Virus record (IMG/VR): IMGVR_UViG_3300029343_000516
DNA: 64,000 nt
Strand: one strand, 5' to 3'
Source of the DNA: a virus
Shown: positions 5,892-27,919 of the stretch, one piece after another
How positions within the stretch are numbered: the stretch's first letter is position 1
Layout: each line of letters opens with the position of its first letter
Position numbers and translations under genes: made by a program
The notes under the pieces: model-generated
Databases searched by the model: none
What the model was told of the DNA's origin: nothing
Seen by the model: only the letters and a program-made list of their open reading frames with translations

Positions 5892-6626
5892 TTATTCTCT
5901 TATTTCAAATAACTTTTCTACTGCTTTAACTCGCTTTGTATTGTCAATCGTTCTTTTGACTTCCTGTTGCCAAATACATTCCCATTCTGAAGGAGCTTCA
6001 TGCTCACTGACTAAGACAATATTCCTCTCACTCATCTTCTCAGCCCAATTCCAAAATCTGTCATAATCAAAGTTCTTACTTGATCCATATTGTTTCGTAC
6101 CCTTATATGGAATATCGCAATAAAATAAGCAGTCAACTTTATCAGAATATAACTCTTCATAATCTCCACATTGGAATTGAATATCTTCTAACCTTGGAAT
6201 TTGTTCTAACAAATTTCTCTTAGCTTCGTCATAATAATTTCTTTCAGTTCCAGCTTTTGTATGTACGATACCTGAGTAACCGCCATCAAAGAATCTGCCG
6301 TTATAACTTGAGAGAAAACCAACTGCTCCAATATACCAATCAGGATATGTAGACAATCTTTTGTTAAAGCACTCTCTTACATCTGAATAGTGTTCTTTTG
6401 TAATAAATTCTGGGAGATTTTGAATCTGATTTAGATTCTTGAACATTTCAATAAGATATTTATGATTGTCAGAAGCGATTTTTGTGTCACACTGAACTTT
6501 GTCGATTACATTACAACCACCGCAAAATGGCTCTATGTATGTTTTGATATTATAATCTCGCAATCTTTCTTGAATAATCGGTAAAATATTATCAACTATA
6601 CGAGATTTTGAACCCATATATTTCAT
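5892..6626 (-). CDS. dam: Dam-family DNA adenine methyltransferase (D12 class N6-A MTase)
   Basis: N-terminal MKYMGSKSR (Dam YxGxK motif), FCGGCNV (SAM-binding motif I) and DIPY (DPPY catalytic motif IV). 244 aa. Confidence 0.75.
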   Translation of the reverse strand: MKYMGSKSRIVDNILPIIQERLRDYNIKTYIEPFCGGCNVIDKVQCDTKIASDNHKYLIEMFKNLNQIQNLPEFITKEHYSDVRECFNKRLSTYPDWYIGAVGFLSSYNGRFFDGGYSGIVHTKAGTERNYYDEAKRNLLEQIPRLEDIQFQCGDYEELYSDKVDCLFYCDIPYKGTKQYGSSKNFDYDRFWNWAEKMSERNIVLVSEHEAPSEWECIWQQEVKRTIDNTKRVKAVEKLFEIRE

Positions 6627-6695
6627 AAATTACTTGGAGTAAGGAATTCCTTCTTGTGTACACGAACCTCGTCTCCTTTCATTATTCTTATTCTC

Positions 6696-6980
6696 TTAAT
6701 TTTCCCAATCTAATGCCTGACCGCATTGATCACAATATTTAATGTCGATATCTTTGTAGCCATCATCACACAATATTTCTCCGCAAGTAGGACAATACCA
6801 TTCAAACGGAATTCTCTCTCCGCTATTTTTTACTTTCTTTGGTGTCTGCTTTTCAAGTGCCTGTATTGCCATTCCATAAGCATTTTCAAAAGAACATCCC
6901 CATGAAGTATCACATGGGATTGCTTTACCAAGTTCATTACAATCATATTTTAGTTCTTCGATAGCTTCACTTTCTGTCAT
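6696..6980 (-). CDS. hypothetical zinc-ribbon protein (94 aa)
   Basis: Paired CxxC motifs (CPTCGE ... CDQCGQ). Confidence 0.45.
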   Translation of the reverse strand: MTESEAIEELKYDCNELGKAIPCDTSWGCSFENAYGMAIQALEKQTPKKVKNSGERIPFEWYCPTCGEILCDDGYKDIDIKYCDQCGQALDWEN

Positions 6981-7023
6981 TTGTCACCTCCTAAATCACC
7001 AAGAAACTTCGGTTTACTGTGGT

Positions 7024-7350
7024 CTATAAAATTTCATCTAAAGCACACTCAATTTCATTAATAATTTCTTGCTTAGTAATTTCATAACCTTCCATCATTT
7101 CATCAATAGGTAAGTGATTTCTAAGTACAATATAAAGATATTCTGCGATACCAGTAGTGTCATACCCTTCAACTGTTAAACCTTCTGCTAAAGGTTGAAT
7201 AAAACCATTTCTGATATGATGTGCAAATTTATCTGCACCAATAATAATCTTATTACCTTTTGGAATTTTCACCTTTTCACCTGATAATGCCTTTTCAATT
7301 TCTACATCTTCTGTTGAGGTCAAAATCTGACCAATCTTGTAATCTGCCAT
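7024..7350 (-). CDS. hypothetical protein (108 aa)
   Basis: ORF in the array. Confidence 0.45.
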   Translation of the reverse strand: MADYKIGQILTSTEDVEIEKALSGEKVKIPKGNKIIIGADKFAHHIRNGFIQPLAEGLTVEGYDTTGIAEYLYIVLRNHLPIDEMMEGYEITKQEIINEIECALDEIL

Positions 7351-7495
7351 ACTACTTCTCCTTTATTATCTCAAAATCTTACTTAATCTCTTCACAACTT
7401 CTTCGCAAAATCTGTACAAACAAGTCTTCTTAAATGCTATTCTCAAATCATCAACAGTTTGTCTATATTGCTGACGTAATTCGTTGTCTATCATA

Positions 7496-7768
7496 CTATT
7501 CCTTCTTCTCAATAATAGTTACAGTACCCTCAAACACTCCAAAATTTGATGATTGTTGAAATGTATGCGTCTCCGCAATGTCGTCATCTGTCATAGGTCT
7601 TGTAAGATACCATAATGAATCATCTTTCCATGTAATCTCTTCAAGTTTCTGGTTTGGTTCAAGCTCAATTGTTGTTGATCCGCCAAAATCTTTTGTAACA
7701 GATTGGCATCCAGTCATTCCAAAACACAATGTTAATCCTAATGCAATTGCTAAAATTTTCTTCTTCAT
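7496..7768 (-). CDS. putative lipoprotein (90 aa)
   Basis: Signal peptide MKKKILAIALGLTLCFGMTGC with a lipobox Cys. Strong SD GGAGGA upstream. Confidence 0.55.
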   Translation of the reverse strand: MKKKILAIALGLTLCFGMTGCQSVTKDFGGSTTIELEPNQKLEEITWKDDSLWYLTRPMTDDDIAETHTFQQSSNFGVFEGTVTIIEKKE

Positions 7769-7773
7769 ATGAT

Positions 7774-7923
7774 TTATTCATCCTCCTTTAACACAAGAAT
7801 TGCTTTATAGTATCTACTATTGCATGAACTGGATTCTACTTTGTATCCATCATCCAAATAATCATTCATAGCATTCTCAAAATCATTGCTGTTTTCCATT
7901 TCTAAAATTACACAGTTCTTCAT
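7774..7923 (-). CDS. hypothetical small protein (49 aa)
   Basis: Unlisted short ORF MKNCVILEMENSN... with SD AAGGAGAA 8 nt upstream. Fills the gap between flanking genes. Confidence 0.35.
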   Translation of the reverse strand: MKNCVILEMENSNDFENAMNDYLDDGYKVESSSCNSRYYKAILVLKEDE

Positions 7924-7928
7924 ATTGT

Positions 7929-8189
7929 TTATTCTCCTTTGCTATATCCAGTCTCTTCAAGGAATTTATCAAATTCCTCTTTTGTCATATTGTTTGGATA
8001 ATACATGTCCATCACCATATCAAATGGCTGCAAATAATTATCTAACACATCTTCAGCATCTTCTTTTGCTTCCTGCATTTTCATATTGATATAATCTTCT
8101 TTCGTCATGTTCCATGCTGTAGGACAATCCGTGATACTCGAAAATCTACAATATAATCCATTTGGTTGCTTTGATACAAATCCTGCCAT
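7929..8189 (-). CDS. hypothetical protein (86 aa)
   Basis: ORF in the array. Confidence 0.45.
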   Translation of the reverse strand: MAGFVSKQPNGLYCRFSSITDCPTAWNMTKEDYINMKMQEAKEDAEDVLDNYLQPFDMVMDMYYPNNMTKEEFDKFLEETGYSKGE

Positions 8190-8190
8190 A

Positions 8191-8829
8191 TTATTCTCCT
8201 AATTCTTTTAGTGCATTAACAAGTTCAGCGAGTCTTGGATTCTCAGGATGCTCTTTTACCATCCTTTCATATAAAGCAATATTATTCATCTTTTCAATCT
8301 CAGACTTTAACTCTTTCTCAATAGAAGCTTTCTGCTTTGCGATTTCTTTCTGACGATTTTCCTCATCAATTCTTGCATTATACGCATTCATATTAACAAC
8401 TCCAACGACCTGTGCCGTTACGCACTTGCCATATGCTTCTACTGATCTTACTTCTTTTAAAATTCCAAGGACTCTATTATCTTTTCCTCTTGCATTTACA
8501 ATCACATATAACGGATGTTTTGTATCGTACTTAACAATTTCATTCATATCTTCATCATATAAAGCAAATCCATAATCCTTCTTATTGTAATCATCTACCA
8601 AATTTACAATCGCCACTTTATTAAATCCTGTCATTTTATTATCCTCACTTTCAACTTTTTCTACTGATAAAACGTTATATCCTTGTTTTCTATTCTTTAA
8701 TTGAACCATAACATATTTCTGTGTACCTACATTATATGTATCTATAACAAATCCAGTCTGTCCCCTACTATTACAAGAACTTTTTATTATCACTTTATCA
8801 TTTATCTGAATATTCCTCATAGGCTGCAC
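8191..8829 (-). CDS. hypothetical protein (212 aa), C-terminal coiled coil
   Basis: ORF in the array. Confidence 0.45.
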   Translation of the reverse strand: MQPMRNIQINDKVIIKSSCNSRGQTGFVIDTYNVGTQKYVMVQLKNRKQGYNVLSVEKVESEDNKMTGFNKVAIVNLVDDYNKKDYGFALYDEDMNEIVKYDTKHPLYVIVNARGKDNRVLGILKEVRSVEAYGKCVTAQVVGVVNMNAYNARIDEENRQKEIAKQKASIEKELKSEIEKMNNIALYERMVKEHPENPRLAELVNALKELGE

Positions 8830-8841
8830 CTCCTATTATTT

Positions 8842-9378
8842 TTATTCTCCTAACTGTTCTAAGAACTCATTGCCACAATCACAAAATTCTCTAATCATAG
8901 ACTTCATTAATCCCCATGACATACCAGAATGTCCCTGATTTTTCATAATTTCAATTCCATCTTGGATAGATTTTTCTTTAACAGTTTTGATAATATCTAA
9001 GCACTGACCAAGTTCCATTCCTCTGTATAGATCATTAAGTCGAATAGGAACACATTTATCCCACGTATTCCATTTATCTTTAGATAAAACCTTATGACCT
9101 TCTTCTATCCAATATTTTGATAATTCAGGGATTTTTCTTTTATGTTCTTCCTCTTCACGAATTAATCTTTGACGACTTTCTTCTTGCTCTTTATTAAATT
9201 CGTCAAAAGTTTTACCTATACAAAGCATATAAGCATCATCTAAAGACATATCAGATGTTAGTTTATTCTCATTGAATTCACCGCAATATTTATTTCCATC
9301 CTTTGCTCTTTCGTGTAATTCTTTTACAGCTCGTTCAATAGTCCAACCGCAACAAAAATCAATCTCTCTATATTCCAT
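8842..9378 (-). CDS. hypothetical protein (178 aa)
   Basis: ORF in the array; ends GGAGAATAA. Confidence 0.45.
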   Translation of the reverse strand: MEYREIDFCCGWTIERAVKELHERAKDGNKYCGEFNENKLTSDMSLDDAYMLCIGKTFDEFNKEQEESRQRLIREEEEHKRKIPELSKYWIEEGHKVLSKDKWNTWDKCVPIRLNDLYRGMELGQCLDIIKTVKEKSIQDGIEIMKNQGHSGMSWGLMKSMIREFCDCGNEFLEQLGE

Positions 9379-9397
9379 ATTGCTACCTCCTGTTAAT

Positions 9398-9631
9398 TTA
9401 TTCTCCTAATCCATATCTTCTTAACCATTCTTTTTTATTTAATGTAGTTACACCACGTTTCTTTTGTTCTTTCCATACCTTGATAGCATATTCTTTTGTC
9501 ATTCCTGGCACTGGATAATGTATTACTGATTTTGAAATTGTATATGGTTTTCCTATAGAAATCATCTTCAACAAATCTAATAAATTAGTCATAAATATAT
9601 TCTCCTTTGATATTAATAAGAGTACATTCAT
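9398..9631 (-). CDS. hypothetical protein (77 aa), first gene of an operon
   Basis: ORF preceded by SD AAAGGAGAA and a 285-nt non-coding leader. Confidence 0.45.
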   Translation of the reverse strand: MNVLLLISKENIFMTNLLDLLKMISIGKPYTISKSVIHYPVPGMTKEYAIKVWKEQKKRGVTTLNKKEWLRRYGLGE

Positions 9632-9699
9632 TTCTGTACTCTATGAGAGCATCCTTATTCCTTATCATCACATGTTAGGATTGAGGTTTGTTCCAAGGC

Positions 9700-9705
9700 A
9701 TTATA
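9700..9705 (-). promoter_or_regulatory. candidate -10 box (TATAAT on minus strand) for the 9631 to 2279 operon
   Basis: Perfect TATAAT about 65 nt upstream of the ATG at 9631, with a weak -35 (TAGGCT) at 16-17 nt spacing. Confidence 0.3.
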
Positions 9706-9865
9706 TTCTCAAATGAATTTCAGCCTATACGCTCATCGGTTGACTGACTTATTAATTTCAGCCTTCACCTTTACCTTTTCACCATCTCAGGTTTTCAGTT
9801 CGTTTTACCTCATTTATATATTCTCTACTAAAGCAGAAGAAATCTATGTTTCTTGGTAAAAATAT

Positions 9866-9910
9866 TACTATATATAGCGTCTATATTTTCCTTAAACGCT
9901 ATATATAGTA
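9866..9910 (-). terminator. intrinsic terminator / conserved palindromic element, copy A
   Basis: Perfect 15-bp inverted repeat TACTATATATAGCGT-N15-ACGCTATATATAGTA. Lies 7 nt after the nadE stop and is followed on the minus strand by AUAUUUUUACC. Confidence 0.6.
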
Positions 9911-9916
9911 TTTCAT

Positions 9917-10654
9917 TTACGCCTGATACACAAAACTTGGCATTGGCTGTAATTTAAACAGATTTTTCTCATGCATTGAATCAATCTTAGCTTTTACTTC
10001 CTCACTTGGCTCAATTCCATCTCTGATATATGCATCTAATTCAGCATAAGTAAATCCAAGGTTATCTTCATCAGTCTTTCCACAAAGACCATCGGTAGGT
10101 GTCTTATCAACTAATTCTGACGGAAGCCCTAACTCACGACCGATAGCTTTAACCTCTGTTACTGTAAGATTTTCTAGTGGACTAAAATCACCAGCAGCAT
10201 CGCCAAACTTGCTACAATATCCAACCCAATTTTCTGAAAGATTACACGTATTAGCGACACGACCATTTACTGTCTGTGATACTGCATAAAGTGTAGCCAT
10301 ACGAATACGAGCAGGAAGATTTGTTATTGTCTGAATTGATAACTCTTCATCTAATGATGTTTTAATTTCATATTCAGTAACATTCACAATTGTTCCGACT
10401 GGAATAATAGTACGTGGAATGTCTAAAAAACTGCAAAGTTTACGACTATATTCAATATCTCTTTGTCTTCCCTGTGGCATCATCACACCAAAAACTCTAT
10501 CCTTGCCAAGAGCTTCACAACATAAGCCAGCAACAACGCTTGAATCCTTACCGCCAGAAATTCCAACTACTGCCATACAATCTTTACCATTCTGTTCAAA
10601 CCAATCTCTAATCCACTCTACGATTTCATTCTTTACTTTCTTAGCATCAAACAT
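9917..10654 (-). CDS. nadE: NH3-dependent NAD+ synthetase
   Basis: PP-loop SGGKDSS. KFGDAAGDFSPL and PTDGL...EDNLGFTYAELDAY align with E. coli NadE (KYGDGGTDINPL; PTADLEDD...LGVTYDNIDDYLEG). 245 aa. Confidence 0.85.
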   Translation of the reverse strand: MFDAKKVKNEIVEWIRDWFEQNGKDCMAVVGISGGKDSSVVAGLCCEALGKDRVFGVMMPQGRQRDIEYSRKLCSFLDIPRTIIPVGTIVNVTEYEIKTSLDEELSIQTITNLPARIRMATLYAVSQTVNGRVANTCNLSENWVGYCSKFGDAAGDFSPLENLTVTEVKAIGRELGLPSELVDKTPTDGLCGKTDEDNLGFTYAELDAYIRDGIEPSEEVKAKIDSMHEKNLFKLQPMPSFVYQA

Positions 10655-10670
10655 TTATATATTCTCCTTT

Positions 10671-11297
10671 CTACATTCGATTCATCACATCATAGAACCG
10701 AATTAAATACTCATATACATTTCTAGGAACTAATTCTTTTACCTTTTCAAATTCACCCTTTTCACATAAATCTCTAACCAAACTTGAAGAAGTATGATTT
10801 TTTGGTATCTGAATTTCTGTGAAGTGATCTTTATATTCCATAAGATTTGCTTCTCTTAAAGCAGTCTCAAGATTCTGACCTTCTCTCACACATGCTACAA
10901 AATTATATTCCTCAACAAACGGTTTCCAATTATACCAAGTTGTAAGTGGTTCAATATTATCCATTCCTAAACAAATATAGTATTCGTTGAAGATATAATC
11001 TTTTTCATTTATATCTCTTATCTGAGTAATAGTATTGTATGTCCTCTGTGGAAAGAAGCTGGTTGTTTCAACTTCGGATGCCCACATATTATTTTCCTCA
11101 CAATTTGGCATTGAATTAATCAGCGATACTCGACAATATCCAGGTATCAAAGTCTTTTTCTTCGCAACATATGTATCATGTGCAGGAATAAACAATATAG
11201 CATCAGCATTAACCGCTTTTTTAGCAGTCAATGCCATATCAACATGGGCGTTGGTAATTGGATTAAAACTTCCTGGTATAAGTAAAATTTTATTCAT
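10671..11297 (-). CDS. nadD: nicotinate/nicotinamide mononucleotide adenylyltransferase
   Basis: N-terminal LLIPGSFNPITNAH is the (H/T)xGH nucleotidyltransferase motif of NadD/NMNAT. 208 aa, flanked by nadE and pncB. Confidence 0.8.
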   Translation of the reverse strand: MNKILLIPGSFNPITNAHVDMALTAKKAVNADAILFIPAHDTYVAKKKTLIPGYCRVSLINSMPNCEENNMWASEVETTSFFPQRTYNTITQIRDINEKDYIFNEYYICLGMDNIEPLTTWYNWKPFVEEYNFVACVREGQNLETALREANLMEYKDHFTEIQIPKNHTSSSLVRDLCEKGEFEKVKELVPRNVYEYLIRFYDVMNRM

Positions 11298-12498
11298 GAT
11301 TCATTCTCCAATTAATACATCTCTTTAGATAATCAACATAATCAGGGTTTTTACACATACCTTTACCTTCTACATCAGACACTTTTGCAACATCCATACC
11401 GTTACATTTAGTGGTTTTCATTACAATATTTAAAACAGGAACATCTGTGTCATTACTCAAATAAGTACCAATTCCAAATGCAACGTTTACTCTATCATGG
11501 AAGTGTCTGAATAACTTATCAGCTCTTTCAAAATCAAGACTGTCACTAAACAGAAGTGTCTTTGTCTTAGGATTGATACCAAGTGACTCATAATGATTAA
11601 TCATCTTTTCACCCCATTCAATCGGATCTCCACTATCATGTCTTACACCACTGAATAATGTTGCATATGTCAACTGAAAATCTTTCAAGAAACAATCAGT
11701 TGTAATTGTGTCTGTGAGAGCAATACCATTTAACACACCATACTCTCTAACCCATGCGTCTAAGGCATACCAGTTTGAATATGCTGGATTGTGCTTGTGA
11801 TTTCCCTGACCAGAACACATAATCCATTCATGAGCCATAGTTCCAACAGGCGTGAGATTATATTTCTTTGCGAGATATACATTAGATGTACCAACAAATT
11901 TAGATGGACTGTGTAATGTATCATTCAAATGTGAAAACTTCTCAACAGCTAACTCCTGTGCTTCAGCAGAAAGTCTTCTTCTAAGACCAAATTCAGAAAA
12001 TGTACCAGCGTACCAATGACCGCTTCTGAGATTTTCATACTTTTCATCTAATCTCTTTTTGAAACTATTAAGCAATTCCTCATAGTTATATGCCATTCTA
12101 AAATATACTTCGTTCACAATCGCAAGTGTAGGAATCTCATACATAGATGTATTAAGCCATGTACCAAATGTTTCGATAGAAAGACCGCAATCTGAATCTG
12201 TTGTAATCTCAAAATCCTCATATCTGGGCTGCCATAATCTTAAAAAATCAACATACGAGCCCTTTATCCATTTGATATTGTCAAGGTAAGTAAGTTCATC
12301 TTCTGTGAATCTCAAACCACAATATAATTTAATCTGTCTGCGAATCTCTTCTACCATTTCTTGTGTAAAGTGAACATCCTTATTACGACATTTAAAACTC
12401 CAAGTGGTTTTATAATCACTAAACTGATGATAAATAGCCTGTCCCATACTTAATTTGTACATATCGGTTTCTAATAAACTTGTAATAATCTGCTCCAT
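11290..12498 (-). CDS. pncB: nicotinate phosphoribosyltransferase
   Basis: LLETDMYKLSMGQAIYHQF matches E. coli PncB LLDTDAYKLHMQQAVFHHY, and the roughly 400 aa length fits. I placed the start at the internal Met (MEQIITSLL), which has SD GAAGGAAA. The longer listed ORF start would read through the upstream gene. Confidence 0.8.
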   Translation of the reverse strand: MEQIITSLLETDMYKLSMGQAIYHQFSDYKTTWSFKCRNKDVHFTQEMVEEIRRQIKLYCGLRFTEDELTYLDNIKWIKGSYVDFLRLWQPRYEDFEITTDSDCGLSIETFGTWLNTSMYEIPTLAIVNEVYFRMAYNYEELLNSFKKRLDEKYENLRSGHWYAGTFSEFGLRRRLSAEAQELAVEKFSHLNDTLHSPSKFVGTSNVYLAKKYNLTPVGTMAHEWIMCSGQGNHKHNPAYSNWYALDAWVREYGVLNGIALTDTITTDCFLKDFQLTYATLFSGVRHDSGDPIEWGEKMINHYESLGINPKTKTLLFSDSLDFERADKLFRHFHDRVNVAFGIGTYLSNDTDVPVLNIVMKTTKCNGMDVAKVSDVEGKGMCKNPDYVDYLKRCINWRMNHE

Positions 12499-12499
12499 A

Positions 12500-13054
12500 T
12501 TAATTTCCTTCTTTCTTGATTTGATTAAATATTGTTCTAATATCATATTCTCTGTTTTCGTACTCATAAAACAGATTAATATACTTATCAATAAAAGCCA
12601 TGTCATTTGGATGCATTGCAATTGGTTTACTTTTCTTAGATTCCCACCATTTTAATTCCTTCTCAAAATTAAATGATTTACCATGATATGCTCTACCTGC
12701 TCCAAGATAATCACAAAGCATTTCTTTTTTATACTTCATTGGCATTTCAATAGGATTTCCACCATTATCAAAATTGTCCTGCCAATATTCGTAATGGTGC
12801 TTGTTTCTTCCTTTATGGTGCATCCAAGCTGCTGACCAACCATTCTCTTTCTTGCAAGCATCTATTGGACTTGAAGTACCTTGATAATACTTAACACTCT
12901 CCCAAAATTCCGTTGGAGAAAATTTAGATAAATCATGTACTAACCCTTGAAATGGAATTCCCACTTTACAGCAATAGTAGAACACCCAATGTTTATGCGT
13001 ACAGACTTTCTTAAAATGTCTGAAAGTATTAATGATATAATTCTTATACTTCAT
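12500..13054 (-). CDS. HD-domain metal-dependent phosphohydrolase-like protein
   Basis: H...HD pattern (THKHW ... GLVHDLSKF ... HHKGRNKHH). Start placed at MKYKNY, which has SD GGAGAG. Embedded between pncB and a radical SAM gene. Confidence 0.5.
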   Translation of the reverse strand: MKYKNYIINTFRHFKKVCTHKHWVFYYCCKVGIPFQGLVHDLSKFSPTEFWESVKYYQGTSSPIDACKKENGWSAAWMHHKGRNKHHYEYWQDNFDNGGNPIEMPMKYKKEMLCDYLGAGRAYHGKSFNFEKELKWWESKKSKPIAMHPNDMAFIDKYINLFYEYENREYDIRTIFNQIKKEGN

Positions 13055-13688
13055 TATTCTCTCCAATCTTTCTATACTCCGTATATACTTTGTTTTCACA
13101 GTAATACAAGTTATAATCACACTGTTCAATGTACCACCATAACTTCTGATGTCCTTCTTTAAGATATTCTCTACAATAATCTGTTTCCTGATAGTGATTA
13201 TCTACCATCTGTCTGAAACTCAACTCATCAATAATACCTGAGTTATGACAATATACTGCTATTCTGTTAATTAAATCCTCTGTGAAATTTTCCGTGACCA
13301 CAAATACAACTCTGACAATTTCGTTTTTTAATCGCTTGATGGATTTTAATTGTTTAAAATCATGTAAATGGTATACAACTCTGTCAAAATATGCATATGG
13401 TGCATCTTTTACATTTGGCATACTTGTATGTAGCTCTATCTGAACTCTATGTAAAGTTATATCGAAGAATTTCCTATACCACTCTACATTATTTTCTAAA
13501 TTCCATAATGGATCTCCACCACCAGATATTGATACCCAATTACACTGATTTTTCTTAATCTCCTCTTCCAAAGAGTTCAATCCATCAATCGTACTCTTTG
13601 GAATCTGAAGGTTATTATTCTTTACAATGCAATATGGACATGAATAGTGGCATCCAAAATTGGTTATCACACTCATGTACTTATCCAT
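13044..13688 (-). CDS. radical SAM protein (small, NrdG/PflA/QueE-like activase fold)
   Basis: N-terminal CxxxCxxC cluster (FGCHYSCPYC) and ISGGGDPL (the GGEPL-like SAM motif). 214 aa. Confidence 0.7.
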   Translation of the reverse strand: MDKYMSVITNFGCHYSCPYCIVKNNNLQIPKSTIDGLNSLEEEIKKNQCNWVSISGGGDPLWNLENNVEWYRKFFDITLHRVQIELHTSMPNVKDAPYAYFDRVVYHLHDFKQLKSIKRLKNEIVRVVFVVTENFTEDLINRIAVYCHNSGIIDELSFRQMVDNHYQETDYCREYLKEGHQKLWWYIEQCDYNLYYCENKVYTEYRKIGENNEV

Positions 13689-13691
13689 ATT

Positions 13692-14201
13692 CTACTCTCC
13701 AATCACTTCAATCTGACAACTTTTCATAACTTCCATAGCCGCTTTATGTTTATCAGGTGTGACTCCTGCACAGCAACTTGCATCTACTGTGACATTAATA
13801 AATGGATAATCAGCTTTAATAATTAAAGCATTTGATACTACACAAATTTCGCTACAAAGACCAATAAGTTCTATATCATTGTTAAATCCAAAGTCAGTCC
13901 AATGTGTCCAACCAAAAGATTCCTTATTGATATATGCACAATTTGGAACTTCTAATCCGTCTGCAATCTGCCATCCATGAGTATTGTAAATACAATGTTC
14001 AACTGGTAACTTGATACCTTCTGGTGTACTTAAATAGTTTTCATAATGTGTATCTCTTGTGAAAATAATTCTATCTCCACGATTATAATATTCTTCAATT
14101 TTCTTCTTGACATTTGGAACAATTGCCTGTGCTTCCTTTGTACCGAGTGAGCCATCAATAAAATCATTCTGCATATCAATTACAATTAATGTTTTGCTCA
14201 T
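13692..14201 (-). CDS. pncA: nicotinamidase (isochorismatase-family cysteine hydrolase)
   Basis: LIVIDMQNDF signature (catalytic Asp) plus the conserved Lys and Cys (LCSEICV) of the isochorismatase/PncA family. 169 aa. Confidence 0.75.
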   Translation of the reverse strand: MSKTLIVIDMQNDFIDGSLGTKEAQAIVPNVKKKIEEYYNRGDRIIFTRDTHYENYLSTPEGIKLPVEHCIYNTHGWQIADGLEVPNCAYINKESFGWTHWTDFGFNNDIELIGLCSEICVVSNALIIKADYPFINVTVDASCCAGVTPDKHKAAMEVMKSCQIEVIGE

Positions 14202-14286
14202 TTTGTTACCTCTTTTCTTTATTTTTATATGTATTTATTCTCTAAAAACCCAAAAGAAATTCCGCTTTCTTTCGGTCTTGGTTTTT

Positions 14287-14334
14287 ATACAATATATAGT
14301 ATTTCTTGCAATTCCTTGATACTATATATTGTAT
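14287..14334. terminator. conserved palindromic element, copy B
   Basis: Perfect 16-bp inverted repeat ATACAATATATAGTAT-N16-ATACTATATATTGTAT immediately after the MTase-remnant stop. U-rich flank on the plus side, A-rich on the minus side. Confidence 0.5.
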
Positions 14335-14339
14335 ATTAT

Positions 14340-14690
14340 TTTAGTTTTCTACTGTCATAGATGTTTCCCATACCATAACCATGAGTGCAAGCCATTAATG
14401 TGAAACAAATACCCTCTATTCCAATAACTCTACCGCCAATAAGACTATTCTCACTTACAGTTCCAACTCTTTGTACATCGTTTTCATAAGTTAATTTTGA
14501 ATAGAGGGTAAATTAAAATTTTTTGCCACCGTATACAAGTAACTGAACCCACCAGCATTACCTACAGGCTGTGCCAATAAACACATTGCTACATGATCTG
14601 AATCATATACTCTATTACCCTGACGAAATTGCTTTCCAAAATTTATTTCACCGACACCACCAACTAACTGTGGTTTATCACCACAAGCAG
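14340..14690 (-). pseudogene. degraded C5-cytosine methyltransferase fragment (frameshifted)
   Basis: Two reading frames give GKQFRQGNRVYDSDHVAMCLLAQPVGNAGGFSYLY and GGRVIGIEGICFTLMACTHGYGMGNIY. Both resemble the QGxRxY...TL.A..GGG motif VIII-IX region of C5-MTases. No intact ORF of 60 aa or more. Confidence 0.5.
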
Positions 14691-14693
14691 AAC

Positions 14694-16202
14694 TTAATCC
14701 ACTTGTGGCTGATGAAAATTTACCATCTTCTCATCTGTACAAATATATGTATTGTCATACTGAGCCTTATATAAATGCTCAATCAACAAAGAGATGCAAG
14801 TTGTCACTATACTGTTACCGCTTTGTTTATATCCCTGAGTATCAGACATTCCAACTGCTTTACAGTTCTCATAATCAATATCATCGAATCCCATGAGCCT
14901 GTGGCACTCTTTTGGCGTGAGCTTCCTCACAACTCTTAAATTGTCTCTTTCAACTTTTGGTTCTGTATTACCGCCACCACAAGTATGCATAGCTGGTGCA
15001 ATTCCATCTTCGCTATATACTCTGCGAGACTGTTCATGCATTCTCTGAAACTTTTCGCTGCATAAATCAGCAATATGTATTGGTTCGTTTGAGTCGGCAA
15101 GAATCTGTTTTGGCTGTTTATAATCGGTTGCCACTAAAGTACCCATTACTGAATCCTGCTGATAAACTAAATCTCTGTTACCTAATCTGGTACAATTTTG
15201 TCCAATTGTTGTTCCTACTACATTCTTTTCAAATTTTGGATCTGTTATCTGAAGTCTTTTCTGTACTTCATCAGATAAGAAATATTTCTCCAGAACACTG
15301 CTATCTGTTTCTAATAAATCCTTTAATCTGATTCCTGTATCAAAAGGCTGTGGAAATTCAAAAGACTTGGTATCAATATCCTTACGAATAGAGATACAGA
15401 AGATTCTATTTCGATTCTGTGGAATACCTGTATTCTTTGCATTGATTGTCTGATAATATGAGTTATATCCCAAGTTATCAAGCCGAATCAGCCAATCCTT
15501 AAAACTGTCAATATACTTCTTTGATACAAGAGCATCTACATTCTCCATAAGCAAATACTTTGGTAATGTATTATTCTCTTTTGCTTTTACAAGAAGTCTC
15601 TCAACTTCATACAATAAACCTGAACGAGTTGATTTAATGTTGTGGTTGCCACAATTAGGGCATGTATAACGAGTATCTACGTCTAATTCAGATGGATCAT
15701 ATTCACAACCACAATCATGACATGTCCACTTTAATCCTTCCTGCTTACCGGCGATTGACAAATCTGTACATGGAGTCGAGTATGTAAGTAAATCACTATA
15801 TGGCAGTGACTCAATCTGCATCATATCGCCAAGATTATGTGAAATATGGTCTGCTAACCAATATTTCTCAATACCTTTTGCCTTGTTCTTCTTTCGTGAA
15901 AGCTTCTCCCAATCATACGGAACATCTTTCTTAAAATCATATCCAAGTCTCTTATCTGTAAGCTGTTTTACCATTTCTTCTTTACTTGGATAATCTTCAT
16001 AATTTTCAATCATCTCATTAGTTAATCCACAATGAATTGCAGCATAACTAACTACTACTTCTTTGTCTAAATCTGCTGTTGCAATCATATTTGCATTGAA
16101 GAGATGAGTATTATCAATTCCCTTCATCTGCGCACCAATACCACTGCAAAGCTCAATTACACTTAACTCACAATAATTATTTTTTTCTTTATTCTCTGTC
16201 AA
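14694..16202 (-). CDS. dcm: DNA (cytosine-5)-methyltransferase
   Basis: Motif I LCSGIGA (FxGxG), motif IV TPCTDLS (PC), motif VI LMENV, RKLTPKECHRLMGF and motif X GNSIV. An inserted zinc ribbon (CHDCGC ... CPNCG). Only TTG is available as a start, at 16200-16202. Confidence 0.85.
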   Translation of the reverse strand: MTENKEKNNYCELSVIELCSGIGAQMKGIDNTHLFNANMIATADLDKEVVVSYAAIHCGLTNEMIENYEDYPSKEEMVKQLTDKRLGYDFKKDVPYDWEKLSRKKNKAKGIEKYWLADHISHNLGDMMQIESLPYSDLLTYSTPCTDLSIAGKQEGLKWTCHDCGCEYDPSELDVDTRYTCPNCGNHNIKSTRSGLLYEVERLLVKAKENNTLPKYLLMENVDALVSKKYIDSFKDWLIRLDNLGYNSYYQTINAKNTGIPQNRNRIFCISIRKDIDTKSFEFPQPFDTGIRLKDLLETDSSVLEKYFLSDEVQKRLQITDPKFEKNVVGTTIGQNCTRLGNRDLVYQQDSVMGTLVATDYKQPKQILADSNEPIHIADLCSEKFQRMHEQSRRVYSEDGIAPAMHTCGGGNTEPKVERDNLRVVRKLTPKECHRLMGFDDIDYENCKAVGMSDTQGYKQSGNSIVTTCISLLIEHLYKAQYDNTYICTDEKMVNFHQPQVD

Positions 16203-16220
16203 AATCCTTTAATCTACAGA

Positions 16221-16232
16221 GATTGCGCAATC
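16221..16232. promoter_or_regulatory. 12-bp perfect palindrome GATTGCGCAATC upstream of the C5-MTase start
   Basis: Perfect dyad 19-30 nt upstream of the TTG start; a candidate operator. Confidence 0.3.
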
Positions 16233-16389
16233 ATTTATCCTAGAATTTACTGTTAATTCCTTTCTTCTTAATTATTTTATTGTAAAATCCTATGGAATTT
16301 GCACGTCTGCAAAAACCATAAGAAAAAAATATTTCATTTTACTTTATTTTTGGAAACACTTGAACGAATGTACAAGTTAAGAAATATTC

Positions 16390-16764
16390 TCACTGATTTT
16401 CATTAATCAGCATATCTTCCAGTTTATAAATTTCATCTTTTAGAGATCTAATTCTGGTTCTAACCAATTTATTAAATCCCCATACAGCTTCCTCGTATGT
16501 ATCAGCAAAGAATCTCGCATATATAGTTACACCATTCTTTTTCAAATCTTTACCATTTGCTTTATATTCATAGAAATATTTATCTTCTTTGATTCTCCCC
16601 TTTACGGGCTTACACATAAGATTTAATGCTCTCTCATCTTCCTTGTATGCAAAAGCCCAAAAATCTTTATTATAATGTGTTCCATCATCAATGTATTGTA
16701 AATCATTAAAGATATTTCTATATATACCATTATATCTTGCATCTATATTGTTACAATAAATCAT
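16390..16764 (-). CDS. hypothetical protein (124 aa)
   Basis: ORF in the array. Confidence 0.45.
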   Translation of the reverse strand: MIYCNNIDARYNGIYRNIFNDLQYIDDGTHYNKDFWAFAYKEDERALNLMCKPVKGRIKEDKYFYEYKANGKDLKKNGVTIYARFFADTYEEAVWGFNKLVRTRIRSLKDEIYKLEDMLINENQ

Positions 16765-18432: not shown

Positions 18433-19173
18433 TCACATCCATTTATCAATCTCGCTAAACACATTGCCTAGCGAATCAACAATCGTCAGATCCGTATCTT
18501 CATTCATTAACACTTGAATTTTTTCCCTATTGATAATAACCAAATGCCTACCACTGAAATACGAAATATAATTCGCTGCTGGATAAACTTTTAATGAAGT
18601 GCCACCAATAATCAACATTTCAGCATCTCGAATGGCTCTGATTGCCCTATTTACCGCATCATTAGGAAGATTTTCTCCATATAAAGTTACGTCAGGTCTA
18701 ATCAGACCACCACATTCACACTTTGGGATAGCTTCTTTAGTGTTAAACAAGAAATCTGAATGATATTCCATTTTACATTTACTACAATAATTCCTCTGAG
18801 TAGTTCCATGAATTTCAAATACATTCTTACTGCCAGCTTTTTGATGAAGCCCATCAATGTTCTGTGTAACAATAGCCTTCAACTTACCTATTTCTTCCAT
18901 CTTAGCAAGTACCTTATGAGTAATATTTGGCTCAATATTTCTTGTATCCATCTTCTGACGATAGAACTCATAGAATACCTTTGGATTGTTATATAAGCAT
19001 TCTCGACTCAAAAGATACTCTGGCTCGTATCTATCAAACTGAACGTCATGCTGATTATATAACCCATCCTTAGAACGAAAGTCTGGAATACCACTTTCAG
19101 TAGATACACCTGCTCCACCAAAGAATACAATATTATTTGATTCTTCTATATATTCTCTTAATTTTTCGTACAT
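18433..19173 (-). CDS. cobB: NAD-dependent protein deacylase, Sir2/CobB sirtuin family
   Basis: GAGVSTESGIPDFR, TQNIDGLH, HG, a Zn-binding Cys4 (CSKC ... CECGG) and GTSLKVYPAA are all canonical sirtuin motifs. 246 aa. Confidence 0.85.
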   Translation of the reverse strand: MYEKLREYIEESNNIVFFGGAGVSTESGIPDFRSKDGLYNQHDVQFDRYEPEYLLSRECLYNNPKVFYEFYRQKMDTRNIEPNITHKVLAKMEEIGKLKAIVTQNIDGLHQKAGSKNVFEIHGTTQRNYCSKCKMEYHSDFLFNTKEAIPKCECGGLIRPDVTLYGENLPNDAVNRAIRAIRDAEMLIIGGTSLKVYPAANYISYFSGRHLVIINREKIQVLMNEDTDLTIVDSLGNVFSEIDKWM

Positions 19174-19445: not shown

Positions 19446-20834
19446 TTAATACTCTATCCAACCATCTGTAATACCAGTCATCCAATAAATAAGATCTTCT
19501 CTATCATTTTTTAATCTTCCATCTATTACACGAGTTAAGATTTCATTGAGCCAGTATCCAACTTCTTTTCCACTTTTAATGAGCATTGTATCCATTACAT
19601 CTTTTCCATTAACTGCTAAATCCTTTAGAGAAAAACATTCATCGTCCTGTAAAACTTCTTCCAAAATATATCCGATATTGTCAATCTTCTGTAATCTTGT
19701 TTCCTGATTAATGTCTGCTTGTGCTTTAATATCAGCTCTACGAACATTTAATAACCTTCTGAACTGTTCTTCTCCAATTTTATTAAGCCATCTCTTGACA
19801 TATTTCTTCCCCATCTCAAAAGTTGTATCATGATAATAAACAAGCTGCACTACTTTTTCTCTTGTATCATTATCAAAACGAAGTCTTTTCATAATTGTAT
19901 CAGTCATATCAGCACTGACTCTTCCATGACCTTTAAAATGTCTAATACCATCTTCTCCATCCTGATAACAATGTGGTTTTCCTATGTCATGAAAGAACAC
20001 CGCTAATGATGTAATTAAATCTATTGAATTTAAGTCGGGTTCACAATCACATTCATAAGCTTGTACTGCATGTACTGTATGATTCCATACATCATAAATG
20101 TGATATGGATTATTCTGTTGAAAGCCAAGCATATCTTTAATTTCAGGAATGAACAACGAGAATACTTCACGGAATAATCCTATCTGTATATAAAACTCGC
20201 TTGATAATGCAATCTTACAGAACTCACTGTTGATTCTCTCAATAGATATATTCTCTAAATTCTTATACATTTTATGAATATTAAAACTCACATCAGAATC
20301 AACCACAAATCCCAGTTGTGAAGCAAACCGAATAGCACGTAAAATTCTTAAAGCATCTTCCGAAAATCTATCCTCTGCTCTACCAACACATCTGATTTTA
20401 TAATGCTCAATATCTTCCATACCATTAAACGGATTTACAAGACCAACTTCATCATTGTATGCCATCGCATTGATTGTAAAATCTCTACGCTTCAAATCTT
20501 CTTTAAGACTTCGTGTAAATGTTACGCTATCAGGTCTACGACTATCTGAGTAATTACCGTCAATTCTGTAAGTGGTGCATTCATATCCTTCACCGTCAAT
20601 TACAATGGTAATAGTTCCATGTTGTAAACCAGTTTCAATAATTCTCTTGTCCTTGAATACTTCCATCATTTCATCTGGTGTGGCAGAAGTTGTAATGTCG
20701 TAATCGTGAATTGGTCTGCCAAGAATACTATCTCTCACTGCACCACCACATAAAAATGCCTCATATCCATTATTCTGTAAAGTATGAATAATTTCATTTG
20801 CACCAGATGGAATTTCAATTTTCAATTTCTTCAT
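19446..20834 (-). CDS. cca: tRNA nucleotidyltransferase (CCA-adding enzyme) with HD domain
   Basis: Class II nucleotidyltransferase head CGGAVRDSILGRPIHDYDI (GGxVRD...DxD), HD motif FFHDIGKP. 462 aa. Confidence 0.8.
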   Translation of the reverse strand: MKKLKIEIPSGANEIIHTLQNNGYEAFLCGGAVRDSILGRPIHDYDITTSATPDEMMEVFKDKRIIETGLQHGTITIVIDGEGYECTTYRIDGNYSDSRRPDSVTFTRSLKEDLKRRDFTINAMAYNDEVGLVNPFNGMEDIEHYKIRCVGRAEDRFSEDALRILRAIRFASQLGFVVDSDVSFNIHKMYKNLENISIERINSEFCKIALSSEFYIQIGLFREVFSLFIPEIKDMLGFQQNNPYHIYDVWNHTVHAVQAYECDCEPDLNSIDLITSLAVFFHDIGKPHCYQDGEDGIRHFKGHGRVSADMTDTIMKRLRFDNDTREKVVQLVYYHDTTFEMGKKYVKRWLNKIGEEQFRRLLNVRRADIKAQADINQETRLQKIDNIGYILEEVLQDDECFSLKDLAVNGKDVMDTMLIKSGKEVGYWLNEILTRVIDGRLKNDREDLIYWMTGITDGWIEY

Positions 20835-21431: not shown

Positions 21432-21974
21432 TTATTCTCCTTCTAAATAACAGATTGGTACTTCTTTTGTAAGCCATACACCATTTTGAGATAAAAAGAA
21501 TTTATATCCGTCATTATACATATCTTTTGCTCGAACCTTATAAATAAACGGTTCTCCATGTCTACTGCCAACATTTGTTGCTGTTTCAATATCTTTTGAT
21601 AGATGAACATATAAACGGCTCTTAGAGATTAATCCTTGTTTGTTGATTGAAGAACAATATTTGACACCTGTTCCATGATATAAAATATCTGGTGGCATAC
21701 ACTCTTTTAATTCTACATCAACTTTTATAGAATGACCTTGATTTGCTCTTATAAGCGTCTTTTCTCGATTAAATGAATATCTCTGTTTAGAATCTTCTTC
21801 TACAATTTTCTCAAGCATTTTCATTGTAATCGTCTGAGTTTTATTGATTCCTTTTAATAGATCTGACACGTTAGCCCAACCATGTTTGTCTAATGTGATA
21901 CCGATAACATCAGGTCTGTGTCTAAGAATTAATGCTATGTATTTGCTTAAATTATTTTGCTCTTTATTCGTCAT
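21432..21974 (-). CDS. kptA: RNA 2'-phosphotransferase Tpt1/KptA (NAD+-dependent)
   Basis: LSKYIALILRHRPDVIGITLDKHGWANVSDLL, IRANQGHS, LYHGT, YVHLS and NGVWLT align along the full length with E. coli KptA. Start placed at the internal ATG (MTNKEQ), which has a GGAGA SD. The listed longer ORF begins at TTG. Confidence 0.85.
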   Translation of the reverse strand: MTNKEQNNLSKYIALILRHRPDVIGITLDKHGWANVSDLLKGINKTQTITMKMLEKIVEEDSKQRYSFNREKTLIRANQGHSIKVDVELKECMPPDILYHGTGVKYCSSINKQGLISKSRLYVHLSKDIETATNVGSRHGEPFIYKVRAKDMYNDGYKFFLSQNGVWLTKEVPICYLEGE

Positions 21975-21978
21975 AATG

Positions 21979-22215
21979 TTATCTCCATTCTCCAATATAC
22001 TCAGAACATTCTTTTTTGAATTTTTCCAATATATGTATTAAGCTATCTATTTCATAAGAATCCTTAAATGTTATTTCAATTATTTCAGGCTTAGATATAT
22101 CAATATTGTCAGTAGTGTAGGGCAATGGTTTCATAAAGCAATCAAATCTGACGTTCAACCCTTTATGTGTCAATCTTATTTGATTGACATTTTCTTTATT
22201 TCCAACAACCTTCAA
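21979..22215 (-). CDS. hypothetical protein (78 aa), TTG start with strong SD
   Basis: ORF with SD GGAGGTGA 9 nt before TTG. First gene after palindrome copy C. Confidence 0.4.
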   Translation of the reverse strand: MKVVGNKENVNQIRLTHKGLNVRFDCFMKPLPYTTDNIDISKPEIIEITFKDSYEIDSLIHILEKFKKECSEYIGEWR

Positions 22216-25035: not shown

Positions 25036-26619
25036 CTACTCAATAATCTTAAATGATACATCTGTTCTTCTATTCATTGCACGATGTTCCTCTGTATCAT
25101 TATCTATTACAGGATTGCTTGAACCGTTACCAACAGTTACGATTCTATCTGCTGAAATACCATTCATAATGAAGTAATTCTTAACAGCTTCCGCTCTCTG
25201 GGCTGATAACTTCTGATTGTACTCGTCCTGCGGATCTGAATTTGGATTAGGATCTGTATTACCAGCAATCTCAATAATTGCTCCATCGAGTACATTTGCA
25301 ATATCAATAAATTTATTAAGCTCCTCGGATGCGGCGGCTGAATCTGTAAACTGGGCTGTATTCTTATTAAATGTTACCGAAGCAGATCCACTTAATAATG
25401 CCTCCGTATCCTGTACTTCCTGCTTATTATCATCTGTTACCTTTACTGTGTCTGTGTTAGATACATCTGTAGCATTAAACTTGTCTGCAATGGCATTAAT
25501 ATATGTATCATCAAAAATTGTATCTACTAAATCAGCATTTACAGTCTCACCAATTGATGTCCAAACATTGCACATATCTGAATAAATAGTCTTTGCTGTG
25601 CCATTTAATAAATCAGAATTGTCTTTCCAAGTTGTGAGTTTTGCAGTAGCTGCACTTCCTGCAATATCTTCATCAGATGCAGTATTGAACATTGGCATTA
25701 CTTCTCTGATTGCTGTAAACTCATTGTCGTACATATCGGATGCTTCAAGAGAACCCTGAACAAATTTCTCTACTATCTCTGGATATGCCTCTGCAAAATT
25801 CTTATCAAATAAAATTCCATCCATTACAAGATTTGTTGAGCTTGCTGTACTAAATAATACATGTGCATCTGTCATATTCTGTGCCTGTGTTAAATAAGGC
25901 TCCCATGTAGCAGCTACATCAACTTGTCCTGCAAAAAATGCTTTTGCTGTATCATCTGCTGTTGAGAATAATACAAGATTATCAATAATATCAGATTTCT
26001 CATCGTCTGATAAATCAGAATTATTAACAAACCAAATAACTAATGTCTGTGCCTCTGAAAACTCAGGGACACCAATTTTTGCACCAACTAAATCTTTTAC
26101 TGAATTAATTGATGATTTGGCAATAATACCATCACCACCATTTGAGTAGTTTGTAATATATGGCATAATTACATCTTCACCAGCTTCTGTAAACTTTTGT
26201 GATAAAAATGCTGTTCTATTGATTGTATAGCCTGCCGCATTTAAATCACCTTTAATAAGGGCGTTGCTTGACTGTGTAGCATCATTAATAACATTGATAT
26301 TTACATTGATACCGAGTTTTCCATAAATAGAATCTGGCTGTGTTGTAAGTCCACCATTAGCGTCAATAATAGATTTCCAGCCAATCCACTCATCTAATGA
26401 AAGATTAATAGTTCCGTCACTATTAGCTTTCTTTTTATTAGAACTAGAAGATGTTGTGCCAGTTACTTTGTTCCCTGCATTACTTATCGAAGTGTTACTC
26501 TTGGTTTTAATTAACCCTGTCTTTACACCAGCGAAAACACCACCACCAATTAATGCAATAACCAAAACCATAATTAAAATTTTTGAAGCTTTGGTAAGTC
26601 TAAATCTTTTTGTACTCAT
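25036..26619 (-). CDS. ABC transporter substrate-binding protein (NMT1/SsuA-like) fused to a C-terminal OmpA-like peptidoglycan-binding domain
   Basis: N-terminal TM anchor and a periplasmic binding-protein-like middle. C-terminal NQKLSAQRAEAVKNYF...RRTDV is the OmpA/MotB signature. 527 aa. Confidence 0.6.
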   Translation of the reverse strand: MSTKRFRLTKASKILIMVLVIALIGGGVFAGVKTGLIKTKSNTSISNAGNKVTGTTSSSSNKKKANSDGTINLSLDEWIGWKSIIDANGGLTTQPDSIYGKLGINVNINVINDATQSSNALIKGDLNAAGYTINRTAFLSQKFTEAGEDVIMPYITNYSNGGDGIIAKSSINSVKDLVGAKIGVPEFSEAQTLVIWFVNNSDLSDDEKSDIIDNLVLFSTADDTAKAFFAGQVDVAATWEPYLTQAQNMTDAHVLFSTASSTNLVMDGILFDKNFAEAYPEIVEKFVQGSLEASDMYDNEFTAIREVMPMFNTASDEDIAGSAATAKLTTWKDNSDLLNGTAKTIYSDMCNVWTSIGETVNADLVDTIFDDTYINAIADKFNATDVSNTDTVKVTDDNKQEVQDTEALLSGSASVTFNKNTAQFTDSAAASEELNKFIDIANVLDGAIIEIAGNTDPNPNSDPQDEYNQKLSAQRAEAVKNYFIMNGISADRIVTVGNGSSNPVIDNDTEEHRAMNRRTDVSFKIIE

Positions 26620-26634
26620 TCCATTCTCTCCTTA

Positions 26635-27902: not shown

Positions 27903-27919
27903 TTTGTTTCCTCCTTAAA

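Follow-up and report, generated by a model that had tools for sequence, protein, structure and literature searches.

Introduction

Depletion of NAD+ (nicotinamide adenine dinucleotide) is one of the commonest strategies of bacteria against phages, and all NADase immune effectors release nicotinamide. To our knowledge, three phage counter-pathways are known, all of them from Proteobacteria or Bacillus model systems. Here, we examine a 64,000-nucleotide stretch of viral DNA (IMG/VR record IMGVR_UViG_3300029343_000516, hereafter the window), in which a block of six genes at 9917-14201 is predicted to rebuild NAD+ from nicotinamide, and in which the core of this block occupies the same slot as genes resembling one of the known counter-pathways, NARP1-AP, in sibling phages. 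Coordinates are positions in the window, and L-numbers designate sibling or related loci fetched for comparison.

The published signature of NARP1 is a Prs gene followed by a Nampt gene, and an added Macro phosphatase (Adpp) makes it NARP1-AP. NARP1 needs ADP-ribose (ADPR), and aRES defeats it unless Adpp is present. NARP2 consists of Nampt and Nmnat (Osterman et al. 2024), and NARP3 combines a PnuC-like transporter with a NadR-like enzyme (Yan et al. 2026). Neither Osterman et al., on NARP1 and NARP2, nor Iyer et al. 2022 mention PncA, PncB, or NadE. In animal guts, complete salvage or Preiss-Handler pathways are carried by 174 of 668 jumbo phages, with Kuafu_71 (pncB-nadD-nadE) as the explicit example; both self-supply and counter-defense were proposed for them in silico (Li et al. 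2024, Microbiome, PMC11662467). A bacterial variant is known from Francisella, where nicotinate mononucleotide (NaMN) is converted to nicotinamide mononucleotide (NMN) by a NadE-type NMN synthetase before NadM acts (PMC3376133). Our literature searches found no experimental report of PncA, a Preiss-Handler route, or a NARP4 in anti-defense, and no report of a PncA-initiated four-step block, its host origin, its DUF5662 gene, or its allelism with NARP1.

Results

A conserved six-gene block

The block lies on the minus strand, as do essentially all open reading frames (ORFs) throughout the 64 kb. Its first gene encodes a PncA-like protein, a putative nicotinamidase (13692-14201; 169 amino acids [aa]), and is followed by genes for a small radical-SAM-like enzyme (13044-13688; 214 aa), a DUF5662 protein resembling HD-fold metal-dependent phosphohydrolases (12500-13054; 184 aa), the nicotinate phosphoribosyltransferase PncB (11290-12498; 402 aa), a NadD-like nicotinate/nicotinamide mononucleotide adenylyltransferase (10671-11297; 208 aa), and NadE, a single-domain, NH3-dependent NAD+ synthetase (9917-10654; 245 aa). 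For PncB, a longer ORF opening with TTG was rejected in favor of the start at 12498. Neighboring genes overlap by 8 to 11 nucleotides or are spaced by 1 to 16, and a GGAG-type ribosome-binding site precedes each of the six. The original prediction had described five co-oriented, nearly gapless genes. Their shared orientation and tight spacing stand, as do the span of 9917-14201 and the four motifs read in these minus-strand ORFs, but the genes number six, the radical-SAM-like gene and DUF5662 having been missed.

The juxtaposition of these genes is not a matter of chance, since >100 distinct contigs, both metagenomic and viral, share this arrangement. All six are under purifying selection, with median ratios of nonsynonymous to synonymous substitution rates (dN/dS) of 0.07 to 0.21 against dozens of distinct sibling alleles. 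The GC content of the block (33.7%) is close to that of the window (32.6%).

Profile and PDB searches agree on the four enzyme families that had been proposed from motifs, with the NadD-like protein falling just below the cut-off of its NCBIfam model, TIGR00482. The PncA-like protein carries LIVIDMQNDF at residues 5-14 and matches Pfam Isochorismatase (E = 2.8e-23), which is a superfamily-level model; an NCBIfam profile search reached no equivalog for it. Its best solved relative is the nicotinamidase of P. horikoshii (1IM5, E = 8.6e-15), and further PDB matches are yeast Pnc1, S. pneumoniae PncA, and M. tuberculosis PncA. Residues D9 and C120 align with the catalytic Asp and Cys of 1IM5 and Pnc1, and D50, H52, and H69 align with the nicotinamidase-specific metal ligands. 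The catalytic Lys is probably K93, at the position expected from "INK-ESFG", where the alignment is ambiguous and HMMER places a gap. With an isochorismatase fold, a likely Asp-Lys-Cys triad, and an Asp/His/His metal site, the protein has the features expected of a nicotinamidase; its dN/dS is 0.20.

PncB, with LLETDMYKL at residues 8-16, scores well above the cut-offs of two NCBIfam models (NF003704, 484.6 bits against 379; TIGR01514, 407.6 bits against 269.55) and aligns over its whole length to solved nicotinate phosphoribosyltransferases (PDB 1YIR, E = 1.1e-96). It keeps the GTMAHEW motif with H223 and has a dN/dS of 0.07. Judged by these matches, the phosphoribosyltransferase of the block belongs to the PncB family and not to Nampt.

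The NadD-like protein is divergent and is the weakest of the four family assignments. It matches Pfam CTP_transf_like (E = 1.2e-14) and aligns over its full length to the NadD structures of B. anthracis and S. aureus (E of ~2e-9), and human NMNAT1 matches only residues 4-98 (E = 1.3e-6). At residues 9-18, it has GSFNPITNAH (T15...H18) instead of the bacterial HxGH motif, the T-x-x-H form of eukaryotic NMNATs and PPAT, and the C-terminal SSSLVR is present. Its clade is restricted to phages and small, as a search of 5.8 billion proteins gave no more than 88 relatives. In other phages, a NadM-type enzyme fills the adenylyltransferase slot. Since NadD-like and NadM-like enzymes are not orthologous, it is presumably the function of this slot that is selected.

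NadE contains SGGKDSS at residues 33-39, of which residues 33-38 (SGGKDS) form the PP-loop, and matches TIGR00552 (181.3 bits, cut-off 63.65), PF02540 (E = 7.5e-51), and phrog_11189 (E = 1.2e-65). Its best PDB match is 2E18, followed by 3FIU of Francisella, and its dN/dS is 0.21. By the presence of the PP-loop and a single domain, it fits the NAD+ synthetases, and the lack of a glutaminase domain means that, by family logic, it should be ammonia dependent.

Exchange of the core with NARP1-AP-like genes

Anchoring on the neighboring CCA-adding enzyme, we fetched 80 sibling loci, which differ in what lies between PncA and NadE. In 19 of them, the core is DUF5662-PncB-NadD (type A), as in the window. 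Another 23, among them L259, L268, L271, L281, L293, L315, and L329-L335, carry instead a core of Adps-like, Namat-like, and Macro genes, with or without NADAR (type B), and have no PncB, NadD, or DUF5662, while keeping the PncA-like gene and NadE 3.3 to 3.7 kb apart. No locus of the 80 has both cores. Conversely, neither Adps nor Namat was found in 86 PncB-type loci or in the 64-kb window.

In one type B locus (L281, 12928-17352 of that locus), the genes between PncA-like and NadE encode a Prs-like protein (PF00156, PF14572), a 500-aa Nampt-like protein (PF18127 and PF04095), a Macro protein, and NADAR; the Macro-domain match is weak (E = 7.5e-4) and lies below Pfam's cut-off. The sibling Prs-like protein is 35.9% identical to the experimentally characterized Adps of SPbetaL1 over 95% of its length (E = 2e-34). 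Nucleotide homology between the window and the type B siblings starts ~25 nucleotides upstream of the PncA start and covers PncA (96.7% identity) or, in L329, PncA together with the radical-SAM gene (96.5%). It ends at window position 13686 or 13053 and restarts at 10651, three bases inside NadE. Because these breaks fall at gene boundaries, the slot flanked by PncA and NadE has two alleles, [radical-SAM]-DUF5662-PncB-NadD and Adps-Namat-Macro(-NADAR).

The remaining variation includes 29 sibling loci in which no NAD core lies up to 10 kb from the anchor; only three of these could be shown to carry the core further away. The pairing of a PncA-like gene with NARP1-like genes extends beyond this lineage: Phage Phass-1 (L337, OQ749652.1), an unrelated human-gut phage of the code-15 clade, is annotated at 6459-9561 of its own sequence with consecutive genes for nicotinamidase, ribose-phosphate pyrophosphokinase, and nicotinamide phosphoribosyltransferase. 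This trio adjoins an array of ~20 tRNA genes, including a suppressor tRNA-Sup-CTA.

Upstream, the block is bounded by a 492-bp gap that separates PncA from the C5 DNA methyltransferase gene lying before it. On the minus strand, the boundary at 14250-14335 consists of a 17-bp perfect inverted repeat with a 16-nucleotide spacer (14286-14335, TATACAATATATAGTAT) and then a terminator-like hairpin with a T-run (14250-14275), after which come the ribosome-binding site and ATG of PncA. The arms of the inverted repeat are exact in 49 of 337 loci, whether or not an NAD core follows. Also in the gap, 14340-14693 resembles, by eye, leftover coding sequence of a methyltransferase C terminus; the equivalent methyltransferase alleles of sibling loci are 318 to 511 aa long. 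An Rfam scan of 9300-16500 returned no riboswitch and no other family, and a promoter scan was uninformative, giving fewer sites than shuffled sequences.

Host origin and related architectures

The nearest relatives of PncB are almost all from Lachnospiraceae, at 77 to 84% identity (Eubacterium uniforme, Butyrivibrio, Roseburia, Lachnospira, and Agathobacter), a relationship overlooked in the original prediction. Among Lachnospiraceae isolates, PncBs are 74 to 90% identical to one another, and the phage PncBs nest among them in a rough neighbor-joining tree. In this family, a pncA homologue lies directly upstream of pncB, and nadE lies directly downstream in a subset; NadD, DUF5662, and the radical-SAM gene were never found in the Lachnospiraceae pncA-pncB neighborhood. 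Because the host gene order matches, phage PncB falls within host diversity, and NadD and DUF5662 are absent there, the block looks like a captured host pncA-pncB-nadE operon to which an adenylyltransferase and DUF5662 were added. Phage PncA and NadE are mosaic and much less similar to the host proteins (38 to 64% and 46 to 59% identity, respectively) than PncB is.

Other viral contigs show intermediate layouts, including PncB-NadE, NadM-PncA-PncB-NadE, PncA-PncB-NadD-NadE, PncA-DUF5662-PncB-x-x-NadE, and PncA-DUF5662-PncB-NadM-NadE. The last of these occurs in a 225-kb phage contig (L174, 1-8049), 4 kb downstream of a NARP3-like pair of NadR-like and PnuC genes and a radical-SAM/SPASM gene, so that two NAD+ routes are present in one locus. 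In a 206-kb relative (L338, 2819-10669), the six-gene block has a microbial-type PARG gene 0.8 kb upstream and a SIR2 gene 1.3 kb downstream. Among near-identical siblings (L007-L086), PncB and NadD are 96 to 99% identical, whereas the flanking PncA (56 to 100%) and NadE (47 to 100%) include divergent alleles that have been swapped in, which suggests recombination hotspots at both edges of the block. Some loci have an extra gene of ~0.9 kb between NadD and NadE.

The two genes without a counterpart in the four-step route differ in how they travel. DUF5662 accompanies PncB-NadD. Its family has >8,000 homologues, some of which adjoin either a DSPc phosphatase or the set of RNA ligase, kinase, and RNase H in neighborhoods free of NAD genes, and we therefore rejected it as an obligate component of NAD pathways. 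For this family, we found no literature, no solved relative by sequence, and no useful BFVD match. The radical-SAM gene is optional, occurs elsewhere as well, and goes wherever the PncA allele goes, a NARP1-type locus included; a role in the pathway is thus unsupported, and we regard the gene as an optional passenger. The radical-SAM protein has no solved relative by sequence. In another large phage, a copy of it with 82% identity adjoins a YpsA-like (SLOG family) gene, away from NAD genes (L340, 5001-6141).

The element and its other genes

By far the best reading of the element is a common large tailed phage of human-gut Lachnospiraceae, although the genes covered include no capsid or terminase gene. 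PncB relatives with 83 to 100% identity were confirmed in 152 IMG/VR stretches, of which 80 loci were kept, mostly on contigs of 90 to 196 kb, the longest being 216 kb; a few records of the lineage and its relatives measure 206 to 373 kb. A contig collection has this exact NadE protein in 129 indexed blocks; 23 contigs were read, and the six locations listed belong to ENA, Logan, and JGI assemblies. The window holds ~130 mostly tiny, co-directional ORFs, most of them without a Pfam match; its PHROG matches are many and very strong (E down to 6e-268), and a neighboring protein of 685 aa matches a conserved Bacillus Herelleviridae protein from end to end at 59 to 62% identity. Among GTDB species genomes, PncB identity does not exceed 84%, an argument against a common prophage. 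The original prediction had called the region phage-like, and these results bear it out.

Megablast of window positions 1-25000 against GenBank phages and PLSDB plasmids gave no match, and more distant blastn searches with the block gave only short matches to unannotated gut "Bacteriophage sp." records. PncB is present in 14 of 50,697 GenBank phage records, and that of Atu_ph07 is solitary. One apparent case, "Acinetobacter phage MD-2021a" (L088, CAKLQH020000008.1), was discarded, as it is evidently a bacterial chromosome with ribB, serB, psd, and phoBR around pncB. An ENA scaffold of 373,209 bp (ERZ28635104 scaffold_1; L003/L090) has the gene order of the window and about twice the length of the 182- to 186-kb contigs of the lineage; it may be a head-to-tail assembly dimer and not a 373-kb genome.

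The window further encodes an RNA ligase (1310-2236), a probable calcineurin-like phosphoesterase (748-1320), a CCA-adding enzyme with an HD domain (19446-20834), orphan methyltransferases, and two tRNA-Gln(TTG) genes 5.5 kb apart (31556-31630 and 37099-37172), all of those located here on the minus strand. Large phages typically carry genes of these kinds (RNA repair, methyltransferases, and tRNAs). Two NAD+ consumers of the element's own, already noted in the original prediction, were located: a Tpt1/KptA RNA 2'-phosphotransferase belonging to the RNA-repair set (21432-21995, minus strand; PF01885, E = 1e-46) and a CobB-type NAD-dependent protein deacylase, or sirtuin, which releases nicotinamide (18433-19173, minus strand; NF001752, 309.6 bits, cut-off 221). 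Each occurs in only some siblings. Siblings also add PTH2 and RlaP to the RNA-repair toolkit, which probably counters tRNA-cleaving defenses.

Elsewhere in the window, an ABC importer set at 25036-29270 (minus strand) includes an NMT1/SsuA-like substrate-binding protein of 527 aa that ends in a fused OmpA-like domain, along with an ABC ATPase and a permease among the window ORFs that were not individually located. A tyrosine recombinase (Phage_integrase, E = 4e-27) is encoded at 38666-39694 on the minus strand, in a phage that otherwise resembles a large virulent myovirus; no GTDB genome has the block as a prophage.

Discussion

Of the readings considered, we lean, with modest confidence, toward counter-defense, in which the block would restore NAD+ and so undo NADase immunity by means of a deamidating PncA and a Preiss-Handler route. 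Expressed in the infected Lachnospiraceae cell, it would hold up the NAD+ pool. The PncA-like protein would convert nicotinamide to nicotinate and NH3; PncB would join nicotinate and phosphoribosyl pyrophosphate (PRPP) into NaMN; the NadD-like enzyme would use ATP to turn NaMN into nicotinate adenine dinucleotide (NaAD); and NadE would form NAD+ from NaAD, NH3, and ATP. The NH3 freed in the first step would offset that spent in the last, leaving nicotinamide, PRPP, and ATP as net inputs. Since only these are needed, the route should work whatever happens to the ADP-ribose half of NAD+, and it would thus be independent of the fate of ADP-ribose on which NARP1 depends. The route might instead end as in Francisella, from NaMN through NMN to NAD+, because NadE is short with a Francisella enzyme as its second-best solved relative, NadM occurs in related phages, and the adenylyltransferase motif is NMNAT-like; the intermediates would differ and the outcome would be the same.

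The most likely selective reason for such a block would be the undoing of NAD+ depletion by host NADase immune effectors. Counter-defense is favored because the core is allelic with a NARP1-AP-like cassette, whose pathway has a proven anti-defense function, because the block is constant while the sirtuin and Tpt1 vary among siblings, and because the accessory region around the block contains many methyltransferase and RNA-repair genes. This reading was put forward in the original prediction from the enzymes themselves, and the support that it has gained here, from the cassette in the same slot of siblings, is strong but contextual.

Several observations weigh against it. The host encodes the same route, so phage copies could merely raise flux, and no PRPP synthetase was seen in the window. 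Both in ATP and in number of steps, the route is costlier than NARP1 or NARP2. The NadD-like protein scores 99.9 bits with TIGR00482, whose cut-off is 112.45. At least one sibling locus (L298) has the PncA-like gene only and no core, and the occurrence of PncA-like genes alone indicates that the module is accessory and dispensable. PncA and NadE are kept beside the NARP1-like core. There, a nicotinamidase and Namat would be rivals for nicotinamide, and the PncA-like protein could therefore do something else. Finally, the NAD consumers of the phage lie 4 to 7 kb from the block, as would fit self-supply.

Self-supply is the most serious competitor, though we think it clearly less probable. On this account, the block is auxiliary metabolism that recycles nicotinamide independently of immunity and provides NAD+ for the sirtuin, for Tpt1, possibly for an NAD-dependent ligase elsewhere, and for the heavy redox demand that infection by a large-genome phage imposes. 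Both known consumers are within 8 kb of the block, the 206-kb relative has PARG and SIR2 on its two sides, the host route is duplicated with no new chemistry, and self-supply was among the proposals of Li et al. 2024 (PMC11662467) for NAD-jumbo phages. However, the consumers come and go among siblings around a constant block, the demand of Tpt1 is trivial at one NAD+ per repaired RNA, and the alternative allele of the slot resembles NARP1-AP, a pathway with an experimental anti-defense role that is built to use NADase products. A different division of labor, which we consider improbable, would start from nicotinate, with the Preiss-Handler route proper drawing on gut niacin; the PncA-like protein would then not be the first step and would either remove nicotinamide, a product inhibitor of sirtuins and NAD-glycohydrolase-type enzymes, or hydrolyze another amide. 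The retention of the PncA-like gene beside NARP1-like cores that need nicotinamide, its pairing with NARP1-like genes in the unrelated Phass-1 and solitary occurrence in L298, its match to nothing more specific than a superfamily model, and the exchange of PncA alleles independently of the core (56 to 100% identity) all fit this account. They are opposed by the conserved metal ligands and triad Asp and Cys, by the nicotinamidases that are its best solved relatives, and by the adjacency of pncA and pncB, which is native to the host.

That the region is instead host chromosome or a degraded prophage with housekeeping nad genes is effectively refuted. The ~80% identity of PncB to that of Lachnospiraceae, a gene order like that of the host operon, and the integrase at 38666-39694 could be read in this way. 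Against them stand 64 kb on a single strand filled with mostly tiny ORFs that lack Pfam matches, the strong PHROG matches, RNA-repair, methyltransferase, and tRNA genes as in large phages, and the 152 matching IMG/VR stretches, with kept loci on contigs of up to 216 kb. Moreover, no GTDB species genome holds a copy closer than 84%, NadD never adjoins pncB in these bacteria, and the block does not stand out from the window in GC content.

A bolder form of the counter-defense reading, which we entertain only tentatively and think doubtful, is that the DUF5662-PncB-NadD core, with PncA and NadE on its two sides, is a fourth pathway by which phages reconstitute NAD+, swapped with NARP1-AP at a dedicated counter-defense hotspot, and that DUF5662 is a new accessory enzyme. 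If so, the block would be immune to defenses that spoil ADP-ribose, such as aRES or cyclizing TIRs, and the HD-fold DUF5662 might process a product or signal derived from ADP-ribose.

The block is a good candidate for a further pathway of NAD+ reconstitution and can be tested directly. With it, NAD+ rebuilding would come to include the classical deamidating route, and its carriers would include abundant phages that infect a dominant human-gut family, the Lachnospiraceae. The clean swap with NARP1-AP-like genes is a natural experiment, in which alternative chemistries for rebuilding NAD+ behave as interchangeable phage modules, and it predicts which defenses each would beat: the type A core should overcome every NADase that releases nicotinamide, and NARP1 only those that produce ADPR. 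The block also gives the uncharacterized DUF5662 family a first functional neighborhood. In addition, PncA and PncB of gut phages could affect the microbial conversion of niacin and nicotinamide that feeds host NAD+ metabolism.

Compared with the described pathways, the block shares a slot with NARP1/NARP1-AP (Adps and Namat, joined in NARP1-AP by the Macro phosphatase Adpp), which occupies it in siblings and is never found together with the PncB-NadD core. The chemistry is another one, since NARP1 proceeds from ADPR through ADPR-PP to NAD+, and the window lacks Prs-like and Nampt-like genes. Like NARP2, the block would make NAD+ from nicotinamide, PRPP, and ATP with ordinary salvage enzymes, independently of ADP-ribose. 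However, NARP2 takes two amidated steps via NMN, whereas the block would take four via nicotinate, NaMN, and NaAD, deamidating and then re-amidating; the window has no Nampt, and its phosphoribosyltransferase is a PncB equivalog, though its adenylyltransferase might accept NMN. NARP3 is likewise a phage route that restores NAD+ with genes of bacterial salvage, but it imports nicotinamide riboside, while the block would recycle intracellular nicotinamide. No PnuC is present in the window, and no NadR-type NCBIfam match was obtained among the six block proteins, the rest of the window not having been searched for NadR. Among bacterial systems, the chromosomal pncA-pncB-(nadE) operon of Lachnospiraceae has the same order and orientation and lacks NadD, DUF5662, and the radical-SAM gene. 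The Francisella route has a short, single-domain NadE as here, and its NadM-type partner is found in related phages, with a NadD-like enzyme in its place in the window.

The original prediction had regarded a four-enzyme Preiss-Handler route on a mobile element as a distinct third solution, which no longer holds, as NARP3 has been published and Preiss-Handler clusters on gut jumbo phages were described by Li et al. 2024. Those NAD-jumbo phages are the closest precedent, with pncB, nadD, and nadE clustered on a gut phage as in the window. Their example comes from phages of >200 kb with Bacteroidota hosts, while the block belongs to Lachnospiraceae phages on contigs of mostly 90 to 196 kb. In that study, pncA appears only in the discussion, whereas the block opens with PncA and holds DUF5662, with or without the radical-SAM gene. 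Both studies are in silico; unlike the earlier example, the block is shown to be host derived and allelic with a NARP1-AP-like cassette. Thus, the clustering of pncB-nadD-nadE in gut jumbo phages was already known, and what is new is the swap of the DUF5662-PncB-NadD cassette with NARP1-AP-like genes.

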